39,734 nucleotides of DNA, from sequence record OR594182; one strand, given 5' to 3'. This document shows, one piece after another, positions 1 to 39,734 of this stretch. The DNA comes from Escherichia phage vB_EcoM_SHAK7854. The notes below the pieces were generated by a model that was given only the letters and a program-made list of their open reading frames with translations, was not told the DNA's origin and ran no database searches. Within the stretch, counting starts at the first letter, position 1, and each line of letters starts with the position of its first letter. Position numbers and translations under genes: made by a program.

Positions 1-1731
1 ATGACTGCACGTATGAAGTCAGACTTCGTGTTCTTCCTGTTCGTCCTGTGGAAAGCTCTGTCGCTCCCAGTCCCGACTCGCTGTCAGATTGACATGGCGA
101 AGAAACTATCGGCTGGGGACAACAGGCGCTTCATCCTACAGGCGTTCCGTGGTATAGGGAAGTCCTTCATTACGTGTGCCTTCGTTGTCTGGAAGCTATG
201 GAACAACCCAGACTTGAAGTTCATGATTGTGTCGGCCTCAAAGGAGCGAGCCGATGCTAACTCCATCTTCATCAAGCGAATCATCGACCTCATGCCTCAG
301 CTTCAGGAACTCAAACCTAAGCAGGGACAGCGAGATGCGGTTATTAGCTTCGACGTGGGACCTGCCAAGCCAGACCACTCACCTTCGGTTAAGTCCGTTG
401 GTATCACTGGTCAGTTGACTGGTAGTCGTGCTGACATCCTGATTGCCGATGACGTGGAGGTTCCGAACAACTCAGCGACTCAGGCTGCACGAGACCGTCT
501 ATCAGAGCTTGTGAAAGAGTTCGACGCTATCCTGAAGCCGGGAGGTACGATCATCTATCTGGGTACTCCTCAGAACGAGATGACCCTGTACCGTGAGCTG
601 GAAGGTCGTGGGTACACCACTACTATCTGGCCCGCTCGTTATCCACGCGACAGGAAGGACTGGCAGTCTTACGGCGACCGTCTGGCTCCTATGCTTCAGG
701 CAGAGCTGGAAGAGGACCCTGAGTCCTTCTACTGGCGTCCGACTGATGAAGTACGCTTCGATGATACGGACCTGAAGGAACGTGAGCTGTCCTACGGTAA
801 AGCTGGCTTCGCTCTACAGTTCATGCTTAACCCGAACCTGAGTGATGCCGAGAAGTACCCTCTTAAGCTCCGTGACCTTATCGTAGCCGACTTGGACCCA
901 GCGTCCAGCCCAATGGTCTACCAATGGTTGCCGAACCCTCAGAACAAGCGTGAGGACGTTCCTAACGTTGGACTCATGGGTGACTCGTACCACACGTATC
1001 AGACTGTAGGTTCTGCCTTCAGCTCATACACCCAGAAGATTCTGGTCATTGACCCTAGTGGTCGTGGTAAGGATGAAACTGGATATGCGGTACTGTACCA
1101 GCTCAACGGCTACATCTTCGCTATGGAAGTTGGTGGCATGCGTGGTGGTTATGAAGACTCTACGCTGGAAGCCTTGGCTAAGATTGGTCGTAAGTGGAGG
1201 GTAAACGAATACGTCATTGAGGGTAACTTCGGTGATGGTATGTACCTTGAGCTATTCAAGCCTGTATCGGCCCGTATCCATCCTGCGGCTGTAACTGAAG
1301 TGAAGAGTAAGGGTCAGAAAGAACTACGCATCTGTGACGTTCTGGAGCCTATCATGGGGTCTCACAGACTTATCGTTAACGCTGCTGCTATCGTCCAAGA
1401 CTACCAGACAGCCTCTGACAAGGATGGTGTTCGTAACCCTATCTACTCTCTATTCTATCAGATGACACGTATCTCTCGTGAGCGTGGAGCCTTGGCACAC
1501 GATGACCGACTTGATGCGCTGGCTATCGGTGTACAGTTCTTCGTTGAGTCGATGGCTAAGGATGCCAACAAAGGCGAACGTGAAGTCACTGAGGAATGGC
1601 TGGAGGAACAGATGGAGAACCCACGGAAAGGCTTCGAGTCCATCCACACTGAGTTCTGGGACAATGGGGTCCGGGTAACTCACGATACGGACGACGAGCT
1701 TGGACTAGGGTCATACGTTACGTTCCACTAG
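1..1731 (+). CDS. DNA packaging terminase large subunit (T7 gp19 family); 5-prime partial at window start, N-terminus supplied by 39702..39734 if the molecule is circular
   Basis: 576-aa ORF, collinear with T7 gp19 from about residue 12 ([55 protein letters not shown]). Confidence 0.93.
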
Positions 1732-1825
1732 CTGAATGAATAACTATAGGTGAAAGCTGCATGAATAAGCAGTTAGTAACCTATAGTTACTACCAGTCTA
1801 ACATACTGTTTTACAAGGAGTTTGG

Positions 1826-1848
1826 ACTTAACTATCACTATAGGGAAG
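1826..1848 (+). promoter_or_regulatory. phage RNAP promoter (phiOR-like, downstream of gene 19)
   Basis: ACTTAACTATCACTATAGGGAAG; core CACTATAGGGA identical to T7 class III -8..+3. Confidence 0.7.
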
Positions 1849-2344: not shown

Positions 2345-2390
2345 CTGACCTACGGTCCTTGACCTACAGTGGCTGTGGCCTACAGTAGTG
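2345..2390. repeat. short ACCTAC(A/G)GT direct repeats on the left flank of the terminal repeat
   Basis: three copies of ACCTACAGT-like motif; analogous to the CCTAAAG arrays next to the T7 terminal repeat. Confidence 0.55.
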
Positions 2391-2423: not shown

Positions 2424-2606
2424 ATCTCACACTTCAAGAACCTCAAGTCTCCCCATAGGCCTCTTTCAGTCCAGACCAAAGGCCCTACCCCAGTCTATCA
2501 TAAGGTTGGACCGATGGTCAAGACTTCAGGTCAACGATAGGCTGAGGCTATGGCTTAGGGAAGGACGATAGGTTGGGACTATTGGTCTGCCTCTGAGTCC
2601 CTATCT
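2424..2606. repeat. direct terminal repeat, copy 1 (183 bp; right genome end)
   Basis: exact tandem duplicate of 2607..2789; begins ATCTCACAC and ends GTCCCTATCT, resembling the T7 terminal repeat termini. Confidence 0.8.
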
Positions 2607-2789
2607 ATCTCACACTTCAAGAACCTCAAGTCTCCCCATAGGCCTCTTTCAGTCCAGACCAAAGGCCCTACCCCAGTCTATCATAAGGTTGGACCGATGG
2701 TCAAGACTTCAGGTCAACGATAGGCTGAGGCTATGGCTTAGGGAAGGACGATAGGTTGGGACTATTGGTCTGCCTCTGAGTCCCTATCT
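2607..2789. repeat. direct terminal repeat, copy 2 (183 bp; left genome end)
   Basis: identical to 2424..2606 by direct reading. Confidence 0.8.
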
Positions 2790-2814
2790 GTATAGTGATA
2801 TAGTATAACATTAC

Positions 2815-2940
2815 GTCCTACACCTACAGTCTAACTAACCTACAGTCATTGACTCCTGCTGTACCTACAGTCACCGACCATCGGTAAAGCCATTACCTAC
2901 AGTCAAAGACCTACAGTCAAAGACCTACAGTCTAACGACA
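2815..2940. repeat. array of about six ACCTACAGTC short direct repeats on the right flank of the terminal repeat
   Basis: CCTACAGTC recurs at about 2823, 2838, 2863, 2895, 2910, 2925. Confidence 0.6.
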
Positions 2941-3072: not shown

Positions 3073-3184
3073 AGCTTCCGTCAACACGACACGGCAACAA
3101 CCGGATAGTGAAGACGCCGGGTCATCCCGGTTAAGTAGACAGCCTGATAAGTCATACGAACAACAGGCAGATGACAGAAAGTAG

Positions 3185-3214
3185 TTGACAAGATGTACCG
3201 ACTTAAAGTAGTAT
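3185..3214 (+). promoter_or_regulatory. candidate host sigma70 early promoter (T7 A2/A3-like)
   Basis: TTGACA, 18-nt spacer, TAGTAT, followed by GTACCACAT as at T7 A3. Confidence 0.5.
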
Positions 3215-3341
3215 GTACCACATCAACACGAAACAACGGTGACGACCAACACTGAAACGGTCTACCTGAAGTCCTCTGACTGAAGGGAATGCTCTTTAAC
3301 AATCTGGATAAACTCTTAATGTGCGCCGACAGTGATTAACT

Positions 3342-3390
3342 ACAGGGTCTTTGAGTCTACATCTGAAGGCCCTGACTGATAGCCACTAAC
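3342..3390 (+). repeat. early intergenic hairpin element type A, copy 1 (candidate RNase III site)
   Basis: GTGATTAACTACAGG...CCTGACTGATAG element with internal inverted repeat; precedes ORF 3398. Confidence 0.5.
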
Positions 3391-3654: not shown

Positions 3655-3705
3655 GTGATTAACTACAGGTCGTTAGACTGATAGCGGCCTGACTGATAGT
3701 CACTA
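3655..3705 (+). repeat. early intergenic hairpin element type A, copy 2
   Basis: GTGATTAACTACAGGTCGTTAGACTGATAGCGGCCTGACTGATAGTCACTA; CAGGTC/GGCCTG stem. Confidence 0.55.
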
Positions 3706-3725
3706 GCAACCTAAGAGGATTCATT

Positions 3726-4004
3726 ATGAGACTGAACAAAGCTACAGCAGAAGCCTTTCGCAAGGAGCTTGAATCAAGATTATTGTGTGGAGTGGCGGAA
3801 GGAGCCGCTCGATATAAAGAGAATGGTCTAACGTTCAAGCGCTTTATGTGGGATTGCTATCACGGAGTGGGCCATAAAAAGTCGCAGGAAATAATCACCA
3901 GCAACAATGCGGAAGTGCAAGTGATAGGAGGATACATGGCTAACGTGAAGGATTCACACATAGAGACAATGCTTAAGAATGCACTTAAAGATGTAGCCTA
4001 CTAG
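3726..4004 (+). CDS. hypothetical early protein (92 aa)
   Basis: ORF with AGAGGA RBS 7 nt upstream. Confidence 0.6.
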   Translation: MRLNKATAEAFRKELESRLLCGVAEGAARYKENGLTFKRFMWDCYHGVGHKKSQEIITSNNAEVQVIGGYMANVKDSHIETMLKNALKDVAY

Positions 4005-4054
4005 TGATTAACTACAGGTCGTTAGACTGATAGCGGCCTGACTGATAGTCACTA
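4004..4054 (+). repeat. early intergenic hairpin element type A, copy 3
   Basis: identical to copy 2 over about 50 bp. Confidence 0.55.
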
Positions 4055-4084
4055 ACACATAATTAACTTTGAGAGGATATAACT

Positions 4085-5888: not shown

Positions 5889-8570
5889 ATGAGCGTCATC
5901 TCTATTGACAAACACGACTTCTCTGATGTGTCGAACGCCATTGAGCCGTTTAACCTGCTGGCTGACCACTACGGGCAAGACCTTGCAGTCAAACAGCTTC
6001 AGCTTGAGCATGAGGCCTACACTGAAGGTGAGCGACGTTTCATCAAGAACCTTGAGCGTCAGACCGAGCGAGGGGAACTGGCAGACAATCAGGTCGCCAA
6101 GCCTTTGATGCAGACTCTGGTTCCTAAGATTGCGCAAGCCGTCAAGGAGTGGCACGAAGGTCCAGACGGGAAGCTGTCAACCTCACGTCCGAGCGTAGCG
6201 TTCACCATGTTAAGCACTGAAGAGAAGGCCGTCAAGGACCGCTCTCTTCGCATCTCCTGCGAGTCTGCTGCGGTTATCATACTGAAGGTCATCCTCTCCA
6301 AGCTGGTCAAGCCTGAAGGTATACCGATTACACCGATGGCCTCCGCGATAGGTCGCACACTTGAGGATGAAATCCGATTCGGTCGCATTCGTGACAAGGA
6401 GAAGGAGCACTTCAAGAAGGCGATAGCTGATAACCTGAACAAGAGAGCCGGGGCATCATACAAGAAAGCCTACATGCAAGCGGTCGAGACATCCATGCTG
6501 GAGCAAGGCCAACTAGAAGATGCGTGGGGAACTTGGAGTCCGACCGAGGCTGTCCACGTTGGAATCAAGATGCTGGAGATTGTCATACAGTCAACACAAC
6601 TGGTCGAGCTTAAGCGTTACGGTGCTGGCAATGCAGCGGCTGACGTTGAGATGGTCCACCTGTCAGACTTCTGGGTCAAGAAGATGGCACAACGAGGATT
6701 CAGCCTTGCGGGTATCGCCCCAGTCTACCAGCCTTGCGTCGTTCCACCTAAGCCGTGGACTGGTGTCGTAGGTGGTGGGTACTGGGCCAAAGGTCGCAGA
6801 CCGTTACCATTGATTCGCTTAGGGTCTAAGTCTGCGGTAGCACGTTATGAAGACGTATACATGCCTGAAGTCTATGACGCTGTGAATATCATCCAGAATA
6901 CACCTTGGAAAGTGAACAAGAAGGTATTGGACGTGGTGAACAAGGTCGAGAAGCTGAACAACACGCCTATTGATGACATCCCTCAGATGGAACCGCTGAA
7001 GCCTGAGGACTATGCGGGTGAGACTGAAGAAGAACTCAAGGCATGGAAGAAGGCTGCTGCTGGTATCTATCGCCGCGAGAAGGCCAGACAGTCACGAAGA
7101 TTGTCACTGAGCTTTATCGTCAACCAAGCGAACAAGTTCTCTCAGTTCAAGGCCATCTGGTTCCCGTATAACATGGACTGGCGCGGTCGCGTCTACGCTG
7201 TGCCGATGTTCAACCCTCAGGGTAACGACATGCAAAAGGGTCTTCTGACTCTGGCAGTCGGTAAGCCTATTGGTGCTGATGGTTTCAAATGGCTGAAGGT
7301 CCACGGTGCAAACTGCGCGGGTGTCGATAAAGTCACCTTCGAGGAGCGTATCAAGTGGGTGGAAGATAACCACGACAACATCATGGCTGCTGCCAAGGCA
7401 CCGATGGATAGCATTGAGTGGTGGGGCAAGTTAGACTCTCCGTTCTGCTTCCTAGCGTTCTGCTTCGAGTATGCTGGCGTAATGCACCACGGCTTGTCTT
7501 ACTCCTGCTCGCTGCCGATAGCGTTCGATGGGTCCTGCTCTGGGATTCAGCACTTCAGCGCTATGCTTCGCGACCACATCGGTGGACATGCAGTAAACCT
7601 GACGCCATCCGGTAAGGTCCAAGACATCTACCGCATCGTGTCTGACCGCATTGAGGAGGAGCTTAAAGTCCTACTGGTTAACGGTACGGACAACGAGATG
7701 GTAACTCACGAGGACAAGAAAACTGGTGAGATTACCGAGCGTCTCAAGCTGGGGACACGAGAGCTTGCCCGTCAGTGGCTGACCTACGGTATGTCACGAA
7801 AGGTCACTAAGCGTTCGGTCATGACTCTGGCCTACGGGTCGAAAGAGTACGGCTTCGCAGACCAAGTTTACGAGGACATCGTGATGCCAGCGATTGACTC
7901 AGGGTCTGGCGCTATGTTCACTGAACCAAGCCAAGCATCTCGCTTCATGGCTAAGATGATTTGGGAAGCTGTGAGTGTGACCGTAGTTGCTGCGGTTGAC
8001 GCGATGAAATGGCTTCAGGGTGCTGCCAAGCTGCTTGCTGCTGAAGTGAAGGACAAGAAGACTGGAGAAATCCTGAAGCCTTGTCTTCCGGTACACTGGG
8101 TCACACCTGATGGTTTCCCTGTCTGGCAGGAATACCGCAAGAAGGACACCACTCGTCTGAACCTGATGTTCTTAGGGTCATTCAACCTTCAGCCTACCGT
8201 CAACAAAGGCACGAAGAAAGAGCTGGACAAGCACAAGCAGGAGTCAGGCATTAGCCCGAACTTCGTCCACTCACAAGATGGTAGCCACCTCCGCAAGACT
8301 GTAGTCCACACTCACCGAAAGTATGGCGTGATGTCATTCGCAGTGATTCACGATAGCTTCGGGACCATCCCGGCTGACGCTGAGTATCTGTTCCGTGGAG
8401 TCCGTGAGACGATGGTAGAGACTTACCGCGATAACGATGTGCTGCTTGACTTCTACGAGCAGTTTGAATACCAGCTTCATGAAAGTCAGCGCGACAAGTT
8501 GCCTGAGCTTCCGAAGAAAGGTAAACTAAATATCGAAGACATCTTGTCTTCAGACTTTGCATTCGCTTAA
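5889..8570 (+). CDS. single-subunit DNA-directed RNA polymerase (T7 gp1 family)
   Basis: 893 aa, collinear with T7 RNAP (PFNLLADHYG, WFPYNMDWRGRVYAV, SPFCFLAFCFEYAG, AFDGSCSGIQHFSAMLRD, HDSFGTIPADA, C-terminal FAFA). Confidence 0.97.
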   Translation: MSVISIDKHDFSDVSNAIEPFNLLADHYGQDLAVKQLQLEHEAYTEGERRFIKNLERQTERGELADNQVAKPLMQTLVPKIAQAVKEWHEGPDGKLSTSRPSVAFTMLSTEEKAVKDRSLRISCESAAVIILKVILSKLVKPEGIPITPMASAIGRTLEDEIRFGRIRDKEKEHFKKAIADNLNKRAGASYKKAYMQAVETSMLEQGQLEDAWGTWSPTEAVHVGIKMLEIVIQSTQLVELKRYGAGNAAADVEMVHLSDFWVKKMAQRGFSLAGIAPVYQPCVVPPKPWTGVVGGGYWAKGRRPLPLIRLGSKSAVARYEDVYMPEVYDAVNIIQNTPWKVNKKVLDVVNKVEKLNNTPIDDIPQMEPLKPEDYAGETEEELKAWKKAAAGIYRREKARQSRRLSLSFIVNQANKFSQFKAIWFPYNMDWRGRVYAVPMFNPQGNDMQKGLLTLAVGKPIGADGFKWLKVHGANCAGVDKVTFEERIKWVEDNHDNIMAAAKAPMDSIEWWGKLDSPFCFLAFCFEYAGVMHHGLSYSCSLPIAFDGSCSGIQHFSAMLRDHIGGHAVNLTPSGKVQDIYRIVSDRIEEELKVLLVNGTDNEMVTHEDKKTGEITERLKLGTRELARQWLTYGMSRKVTKRSVMTLAYGSKEYGFADQVYEDIVMPAIDSGSGAMFTEPSQASRFMAKMIWEAVSVTVVAAVDAMKWLQGAAKLLAAEVKDKKTGEILKPCLPVHWVTPDGFPVWQEYRKKDTTRLNLMFLGSFNLQPTVNKGTKKELDKHKQESGISPNFVHSQDGSHLRKTVVHTHRKYGVMSFAVIHDSFGTIPADAEYLFRGVRETMVETYRDNDVLLDFYEQFEYQLHESQRDKLPELPKKGKLNIEDILSSDFAFA

Positions 8571-9042: not shown

Positions 9043-9116
9043 CAGACATACAGTTACTGGCCCTGTGGCTGGGAGCACTCGCAGTATTCACTTTAATCCA
9101 ACGCAGAAGAGGTTAA
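9039..9116 (+). CDS. hypothetical hydrophobic peptide (25 aa)
   Basis: ATGA overlap with upstream stop; MTDIQLLALWLGALAVFTLIQRRRG. Confidence 0.25.
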   Translation: MTDIQLLALWLGALAVFTLIQRRRG

Positions 9117-9117
9117 C

Positions 9118-9140
9118 CCTAAACTATCACTATAGGATTA
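9118..9140 (+). promoter_or_regulatory. phage RNAP promoter (phi1.1-like)
   Basis: CCTAAACTATCACTATAGGATTA. Confidence 0.7.
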
Positions 9141-9182
9141 GACTCAAGGTCATGACTCAAAGTCGTGGCCTTCATGATTAAC
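9138..9182 (+). repeat. hairpin element type B (candidate RNase III site, R1.1-like)
   Basis: TTAGACTCAAGGTCATGACT...AGTCGTGGCCTT imperfect 12-bp stem. Confidence 0.5.
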
Positions 9183-9213
9183 CCTAAATAAACACTACTG
9201 GAGATTTAACCGT

Positions 9214-16140: not shown

Positions 16141-16305
16141 TTGCTAAGAAAACTTAAAGCTCGCTACCATCGGTTCATGTACAAATGGTGGAGCGACGAA
16201 GCAACCTGCCTGTCGAACATTCTGGGAGACCAGCGGTTCAACTCTGAGGCATGGAAGAAAGCTAACCGGAAGTTCATGTATCACTTCTTGCGTACAGACT
16301 TCTAG
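16141..16305 (+). CDS. hypothetical basic protein (54 aa; gene 4.3-4.5 region), TTG start
   Basis: AAGGAGGAG RBS; the ORF-track ATG start at 16108 lies inside gp4. Confidence 0.35.
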   Translation: MLRKLKARYHRFMYKWWSDEATCLSNILGDQRFNSEAWKKANRKFMYHFLRTDF

Positions 16306-16357
16306 GTCTAGACTCAAGGTCATTCACATAGAGTGGCCTTTATGATTAGACTAAACG
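16306..16357 (+). repeat. hairpin element type B (candidate RNase III site)
   Basis: GTCTAGACTCAAGGTCAT...GTGGCCTTTATGATTAGAC. Confidence 0.5.
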
Positions 16358-38894: not shown

Positions 38895-39154
38895 CGCAGA
38901 TGGACTTAGAGAAGTTCCTCTTGATGCTTGATACTGAGCGTGCTCGACTTATGCTGCAAGACTTGCGGGATGACACTAAGCGTTCACCTCAGCTCTACAA
39001 CGCCATTGAGAAGCTGCTTGCTCGTCACAACTTTGTGTTAAGCAAGGTGTCTGTTGACGAGAAGACGCTGGCTGATATGGAGGCCCTGAACGCAGAGTAC
39101 GATAAGGTGCTTTCAGCGACTGAGGATAATGACACCGGGTATGGCGTTCAATAA
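38891..39154 (+). CDS. terminase small subunit (T7 gp18 family)
   Basis: LMLDTERA, RSPQLYNAIEKLLARH matches T7 gp18. Confidence 0.85.
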   Translation: MTQMDLEKFLLMLDTERARLMLQDLRDDTKRSPQLYNAIEKLLARHNFVLSKVSVDEKTLADMEALNAEYDKVLSATEDNDTGYGVQ

Positions 39155-39155
39155 G

Positions 39156-39205
39156 TGTTAGACTCAAGGTCATTACTGTATGTAGTGGCCTTTATGGTTA
39201 ACACT
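39156..39205 (+). repeat. hairpin element type B (candidate RNase III site, R18.5-like)
   Basis: GTGTTAGACTCAAGGTCATTACTGTATGTAGTGGCCTTTATGGTTAACAC. Confidence 0.5.
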
Positions 39206-39255
39206 AACTAGTGGAGGAGACTCTACGTGCAATCTGATAAACCGGGAGGGCAACT

Positions 39256-39705: not shown

Positions 39706-39734
39706 GTAAAGACTTAGTGGCGCGTCAGGCGCTA
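39702..39734 (+). CDS. N-terminal fragment of terminase large subunit (TTG start), 3-prime partial at window end
   Basis: AAGGAGGTGA RBS then TTG; reading frame is contiguous with position 1. Confidence 0.5.
   Translation, partial: MSKDLVARQAL

Follow-up and report, generated by a model that had tools for sequence, protein, structure and literature searches.

The exact 183-bp tandem in the genome record of coliphage vB_EcoM_SHAK7854: a T7-type direct terminal repeat in a probably artificial arrangement

T7-type terminal repeats and the layout of the genome

Phages of the T7 type package linear DNA that bears a short exact direct repeat at its termini, with one copy at each end. During replication their genomes are joined head to tail through this repeat, so that concatemer junctions hold a single copy. 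Fixed sites flanking the repeat are subsequently cut by the gp18/gp19 terminase, and the repeat is duplicated again through DNA synthesis. In T7, ATCTGTT is known as the class II pause signal for the phage RNA polymerase at the concatemer junction, and the polymerase paused at the junction signal is thought to recruit gp18/gp19, which leads to the start of packaging. In the characterised phages, the junction motif spans the repeat boundary or is placed just beyond it. The annotation of EcoDS1 (EU734172), a phage related to K1F (DQ111067), places a “terminal repeat” at 1..178 and 39075..39252 and a “concatemeric junction” at 177..184, across the boundary between repeat and unique sequence. For Kayfunavirus, terminal repeats of 180 and 212 bp have been given in papers.

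The window analysed here is the whole stretch of 39,734 nucleotides of record OR594182. It is a complete genome of a Kayfunavirus coliphage (K1F-like, T7 supergroup), and its nearest database relatives are Kayfunavirus (K1F-like) coliphages with 93-96% identity. Pfam searches showed that the T7-type packaging and transcription proteins, namely gp18, gp19 and the single-subunit RNA polymerase, are all encoded (Table 1). The product of the terL gene aligns with the “terminase large subunit Gp19” annotated at 6737..8467 of MZ234024, and base 1 of the window is the ATG of terL, the same start codon as annotated in MZ234024; the sequence has therefore been rotated to begin at terL. As for the neighbourhood of this gene, gene 18.5 and terL are separated by an HNH endonuclease gene (PF13392) in the relatives MZ234045, MZ234022 and MZ234011, whose terL product has 588 aa. 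The window and MZ234024 are without the HNH gene, and the 576-aa terL begins 29 nt after gene 18.5 (39706-39734 / 1).

Table 1. Features of the window that bear on the repeat, followed by the exact end repeats measured in reference records with both ends fetched (window features as positions, end repeats as lengths)
Feature	Positions or length	Strand	Basis
Large terminase subunit gene, gp19-like, 576 aa	1..1731	+	Pfam PF22530 Terminase-T7_RNaseH-like, E=2e-37
Phage RNA-polymerase promoter, phiOR position, directed at the repeat	1823..1845	+	ACTATCACTATAGG match
CCTACAGT short repeats directly left of the repeat, on the genome right-end side	2363..2386	+	Motif count
Copy 1 as written, assigned to the right-end terminal repeat	2424..2606	+	Copy identity; boundaries from relatives
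ATCTA spacer between the canonical 178-bp copies	2603..2607	+	Comparison with T7, EcoDS1, K1F, Penshu1, Emlis, Bia and Milel
Copy 2 as written, assigned to the left-end terminal repeat	2607..2789	+	Copy identity; boundaries from relatives
ATCTGTA, conserved “concatemer junction” motif	2786..2792	+	Motif search; conserved after the repeat in all relatives checked
(A)CCTACAGTC short-repeat array directly right of the repeat	2815..2936	+	Tandem Repeats Finder; families D7 and D11
Best sigma-70-like promoter match TTGACA-18-TAGTAT, candidate early host-polymerase promoter	3185..3214	+	Consensus match only
Single-subunit T7-type RNA polymerase gene, 893 aa	5889..8570	+	Pfam PF00940, E=1.5e-106; PF14700
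Small terminase subunit gene, gp18-like, 87 aa	38891..39154	+	Pfam PF11123 DNA_Packaging_2, E=3e-12
T7 exact end repeat	160 bp
EcoDS1 exact end repeat	178 bp		Also annotated
K1F exact end repeat	178 bp
Emlis exact end repeat	179 bp
Bia exact end repeat	179 bp
Milel exact end repeat	202 bp

The repeat lies between the map end at gene 19/19.5 and the early region, with phiOR upstream and arrays of short repeats on either side. The phage RNA-polymerase promoter ACTATCACTATAGG has 11 matches on the “+” strand of the window, against 0.17 expected by chance, and the phiOR-like one is situated about 580 bp upstream of the repeat. Eight of the 14 matches to CCTACAGT in the window are found beside the repeat (2363-2386 and 2823-2931), with 1.8 expected genome-wide, and the array on the right side includes a 14-bp x 2.7 tandem at 2895-2932. 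The early genes begin at about 3400. A terminator scan found no terminators around the repeat.

This layout was compared with those of K1F, EcoDS1 and T7. The repeats of K1F and EcoDS1 are 92-95% identical to the 183-bp unit of the window, start with the same TCTCAC and are followed by the same ATCTGT. Their location also agrees: gene 19.5 lies on one side and the early region on the other, phiOR is upstream (about 550 bp before the right repeat in EcoDS1) and host promoters are downstream (host RNAP promoters annotated 290-470 bp after the left repeat in EcoDS1). Their records are linear with one 178-bp copy per end, whereas the window holds two 183-bp copies in tandem within a rotated record. 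T7 (NC_001604) shares the start TCTCACA, the end GTCCCT, the ATCTGT that follows and the A before the right-hand copy, as well as flanking arrays of short repeats, a gp18/gp19 terminase and a single-subunit RNA polymerase. However, its repeat has 160 bp against 178 bp (canonical) or 183 bp (as written) in the window, the internal sequence has diverged, and the junction motif reads ATCTGTT in T7 and ATCTGTA in the window.

Several other repeated or promoter-like elements were noticed. Each copy of the repeat holds a minus-strand sigma-70-like match, by consensus only, with TG before the -10 (TTGACC-18-TAGACT; 2492-2521 and 2675-2704). These matches point leftward, as does the E. coli promoter A0 annotated near the left end of T7. 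A 54-bp direct repeat at 3655-3708 and 4004-4057 (98% identical, 349 bp apart) brackets a 92-aa early ORF at 3726-4004, and the related motif CCTGACTGATAG recurs at 3371 and 4765. The early region may here contain repeated sites of regulation or RNA processing. Moreover, a 53-nt direct repeat (83%) that starts with TTAGACTCAAGGTCAT occurs at 9138-9190 and 39158-39210, with a third partial copy at 16303-16323, and one of its copies stands immediately after the phage promoter at 9115-9137. The repeat could act at the RNA level as a conserved element, for example an RNase III site.

The tandem in the record and its single counterpart in relatives

Positions 2424-2606 and 2607-2789 are identical by direct reading, by the repeat finder (family D2) and by a string comparison with a script. 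Tandem Repeats Finder gives, at 2424-2789, a period of 183 with 2.0 copies, 100% matches, 0 indels and a score of 732. Copy 1 is preceded by C (2423), where a further unit would end in T, and copy 2 is followed by G (2790), where a further unit would begin with A; the repeat thus spans exactly two units, in a single possible phase. The unit starts with ATCTCACAC and ends with GTCCCTATCT, and the junction of copy 1 and copy 2 runs through CCCTATCTATCTCAC. An earlier sequence-only reading had described two exact 183-bp tandem copies with this start and this end, and on all these points it was correct. An exact match over 183 bases cannot have a chance origin. The exactness gives no information on the position of the physical ends, because a collapsed junction duplicated by computation would also show 100% identity, and so would two end copies polished with the same reads.

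For the comparison with the closest relative, the last 740 bases of the window were joined to its first 3900 and aligned against MZ234024. As a result, the last 728 and the first 2606 bases of the window formed one unbroken block with MZ234024, at 96.7% identity, across the join of end and start; the window is thus a circular permutation of the whole genome, cut at the terL start codon. This first block stops at window position 2606, and a second block, from 2607, re-uses bases 3163-3345 of MZ234024. Since these bases are used twice, there is one copy in MZ234024 and there are two in the window, and one additional copy of the 183-bp stretch is the sole difference between the two here.

Most of the other records have the unit either once internally or once per end. 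Sequences 92-96% identical to the unit were found in 155 phage records, and these homologues include the end repeats of K1F, EcoDS1, Penshu1, Peacock and Emlis. Linear records whose ends are defined (K1F, EcoDS1, Penshu1, Peacock, Emlis, Bia, Milel, KM02 and PR_Kaz2018) have the unit at position 1 and, in most cases, again at the opposite end. The arbitrarily started collapsed assemblies, of which there are dozens and to which the closest relative belongs, contain it once, internally, at the homologous place. A search with an 84-aa early protein retrieved only related MZ2340xx records, each with one repeat copy. We also searched 50,697 phage records with a query spanning the junction of the two copies, and obtained a contiguous match only in OR594184.1, while all other records matched as two half-length pieces. 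In IMG/VR, the exact junction pattern GTCCCTATCTATCTCACAC had no match, and no record of the window's exact terL protein was found in other public assemblies.

Judged by homology, the unit is the T7-type direct terminal repeat of Kayfunavirus. The proposal, made from the letters of the window, that the pair represents the end repeats of a linear genome joined end to start is supported by this homology, by the position of the repeat, by the alignment to the relative, by OR594184.1 and by the junction search. In MZ234024.1 and several other relatives, CDSs for a “hypothetical protein” are annotated on both strands over the non-coding terminal-repeat region, and these calls are probably spurious.

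The second record with the same signature, OR594184.1 (vB_EcoM_SHAK9454), is about 91% identical to the window, and its deposit is labelled circular and UNVERIFIED. Like the window, it begins with the terL ATG, and it contains an exact tandem of 2.0 copies of a 193-bp unit at 2424-2809. The unit begins with ATCTCACAC and ends with CTATCT, is flanked by ...GACCAC on the left and GTATA on the right, and shows the same +1/+4 offset from the boundaries of the relatives as the unit of the window (see below). Its 193 bp, against 183 bp in the window, are owing to a 10-bp insertion in OR594184.1. The feature table of this record lists early genes, with an ocr-like gene at 973-1476 and the RNA polymerase from 2777, and the sequence itself starts at terL. 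The annotation seems to belong to a different genome rotation, and this mismatch may be the reason for the UNVERIFIED flag.

With two such records, it has to be asked whether the duplication is genuine and internal to the phage DNA, so that every concatemer junction would have two repeat units. The tandem is indeed present in the sequence as given, and OR594184.1 repeats the layout, but all other relatives checked, the closest included, have one copy per junction or per end. In both tandems the copy number is exactly 2.0 without any mismatch, and the boundaries are at most 5 bases away from known physical ends, as an end-to-start join predicts. The one other occurrence has the same layout and is most likely a product of the same pipeline; both records start at the terL ATG, and they come or probably come from one pipeline. 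Furthermore, T7-type packaging would be expected to reduce a junction with doubled cut sites to single end copies again. We therefore consider a genuine duplication extremely unlikely. The tandem pair as written is no natural molecule: virions have one copy per end, junctions and collapsed relatives have one copy, and the tandem fits neither.

Repeat boundaries and the ATCTA spacer

The boundaries of the repeat agree closely among seven phages, that is, T7, EcoDS1, K1F, Emlis, Bia, Milel and Penshu1, the last with a repeat of 179 bp according to its PhageTerm call. First, the left end is the T of TCTCAC in each of them. Second, an A precedes the right-hand copy in all seven (...ACCACA/TCTCAC, and ...GACTA/TCTCAC in T7). 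Third, the repeat stops directly before the unique ATCTGT (...GTC(T/C)CT/ATCTGT), with K1F stopping 1 nt earlier. In the Kayfunavirus records checked, the measured repeat lengths range from 178 to 202 bp.

The order in the window is ...GACCAC/A TCTCAC...GTCCCT ATCT/A TCTCAC...GTCCCT ATCT/GTATAG, so written that each 183-bp unit consists of an A, the 178-bp canonical repeat and ATCT. Compared with the relatives, the motifs are conserved, but the unit extends beyond their boundaries by 1 base on the left and by 4 on the right. By homology, we infer that the real repeat is probably the 178-bp stretch TCTCAC...GTCCCT, at 2425-2602 and 2608-2785, and that the virion DNA probably has its right end at 2602 and its left end at 2608. 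The placement of the ends at 2606/2607, as first suggested, is not supported in detail, since the boundaries of the relatives map to 2602 and 2608. The same reading had remarked that, at 183 bp, the repeat is longer than the 160 bp of T7. It is longer, but homology gives 178 bp, a length normal for the genus; a terminal repeat exceeding that of T7 is unremarkable in Kayfunavirus.

If the canonical ends were joined end to start, ...GTCCCT/TCTCAC... with a period of 178 would be predicted, and the window has five extra bases. In this ATCTA spacer, ATCT duplicates the unique sequence that follows the left-end repeat, and the A duplicates the base in front of the right-end repeat. The same spacer is present in OR594184.1. 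It is probably absent from the ends of virion DNA and is most likely an over-call of the boundaries. The identity of its bases with the phage's flanks shows that they are no remnants of adapters but stem from the junction sequence itself; they would have been carried over from the flanks, either when the boundaries were set or in polishing of the contig ends, through reads of the other copy. Two further sources of ATCTA were considered. Remnants of adapters (Illumina ...GATCT, or ONT adapters) were rejected on account of the exact match to the phage flanks on both sides, and for a 5-bp transposase target duplication no workable mechanism could be developed. In addition, the unusual TCTCACAC (C, not G, at base 8) was considered as a pipeline error and this was rejected, as MZ234024, from another laboratory, shares TCTCACAC.

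The junction motif ATCTGTA is intact only after copy 2. The more general ATCTGTW was found 12 times in the window against 11.3 expected, which is not above chance, so the meaning of the motif rests on its position and conservation and not on enrichment.

The boundaries drawn in other Kayfunavirus records were also inspected. GA2A (KT990215.1) starts with ATCTCAC, its two annotated repeat_regions have 165 and 197 nt, and the exact shared block has 165 nt. CR44b (HG818823.1) starts with CT followed by TCTCAC, and its annotated right repeat has 183 bp; the exact shared block of 181 nt ends in ...CTA, one base into ATCTGT. This shows that boundary calls in Kayfunavirus records are noisy in both directions, with some ends shifted by 1-2 bases.

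Taken at face value, the boundaries in the window would make the physical repeat a true 183-bp element, with genome ends at 2607 (left, ATCTCAC...) and 2606 (right, ...CCCTATCT); compared with K1F, EcoDS1 and T7, the terminase would then cut 1 and 4 bases further out at its two sites. The record itself gives 2606/2607, SHAK9454 gives the homologous boundaries, and the start of GA2A is the same. However, the sequences at the boundaries are conserved with relatives whose repeats begin at TCTCAC and end before ATCTGT, among them the PhageTerm-mapped Penshu1, the curated EcoDS1 and T7. The ATCT would moreover be part of the pause motif, which in the characterised members lies in unique DNA, and the pipeline of the sister record was without terminus mapping. 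On balance, a physical repeat of 183 bp appears unlikely to us. The same +1/+4 offset in two phages could mean that ATCTCAC/...CTATCT are the real ends in this lineage and not a shared effect of the pipeline. That the cut sites in the sub-lineage of this phage and SHAK9454 truly lie 1 and 4 bases outward, with repeats of 183 and 193 bp, is quite improbable in our view. If it were true, the repeat would hold the first four bases of the pause motif, and the motif would be partly inside the repeat at both ends.

Origin of the tandem in the record and its consequences

The preprint on SHAK9454 (10.1101/2024.01.12.575291), which also lists Kayfunavirus vB_EcoM_SHAK7854 (OR594182), describes ONT rapid-kit (transposase) reads processed with Flye --meta, Racon, Medaka, Pilon and Pharokka 1.4.1, and mentions neither terminal repeats nor terminus mapping. 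Rotation of phage assemblies to the start of terL with Dnaapler/Pharokka is common practice, and tools of the PhageTerm type output genomes “completed with repeats” at both ends. In the same-study records OR594179 and OR594181 (Vectrevirus), no tandem was found in the first 6 kb; OR594181 thus indicates that the pipeline does not always yield one.

We infer a pipeline origin for the duplication, with the 178-bp repeat at 2425-2602 and 2608-2785 as the real element. A linear sequence with both end copies would have been handled as a circle and, on this assumption, rotated to the terL start codon. The rotation would place the right-end copy (2424-2606) directly before the left-end copy (2607-2789). 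The route may have been a rotation to terL by Dnaapler/Pharokka, or a completion of the ends with repeats by a PhageTerm-type tool, followed by a circle-assuming rotation. Overall, we hold it likely that the element is a T7-type repeat, that the tandem is an artefact of representation and that the real repeat has 178 bp with ends at 2602/2608. The sequence-only reading was accordingly right in kind, with its ends probably 1 and 4 bases off, and it missed that the tandem state is unnatural.

The second copy might also be an assembler or polishing error unrelated to the termini, such as a mis-closed circle, in which case the boundaries would be uninformative on the ends. This would be conceivable with Flye --meta and several polishers applied to nanopore reads from a transposase kit, and the 5 extra bases are hard to explain by joining true ends. 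Yet the duplicated segment matches the relatives' repeat within 1 and 4 bases in two phages whose repeat lengths are 183 and 193, which a random mis-closure would not do, so the segment is derived from the end structure of the molecules. Such an unrelated error is very unlikely in our judgement.

A different arrangement of repeats is seen in PP328844.1 (Escherichia phage 216Ecol046PP; 41,264 bp), which has four repeat copies. On the left, TCTCACA is found at positions 1 and 501 of the record, and on the right at 787 and 1287 of the fetched right-end piece. The sequence adjoining the outermost 179-nt copies is non-canonical (GCAGATG...; ...GACTATAT). Apparently some 500 bp of junction sequence were added a second time at both ends, another artefact of representation.

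The element itself is already known: it is a T7-type direct terminal repeat, and Kayfunavirus repeats of 178-212 bp are routinely reported. What the window adds is a point of data quality. When a linear genome with both of its repeats is rotated as if it were a circle, an internal tandem arises that exists in no natural molecule. The rotated record is 183 bases too long as a circle and hides the true ends, and it can mislead annotation; relatives have probably spurious “hypothetical protein” calls over this region. The 5-base discrepancy further means that repeat boundaries in deposited genomes are not to be equated with mapped termini unless the ends have been mapped.
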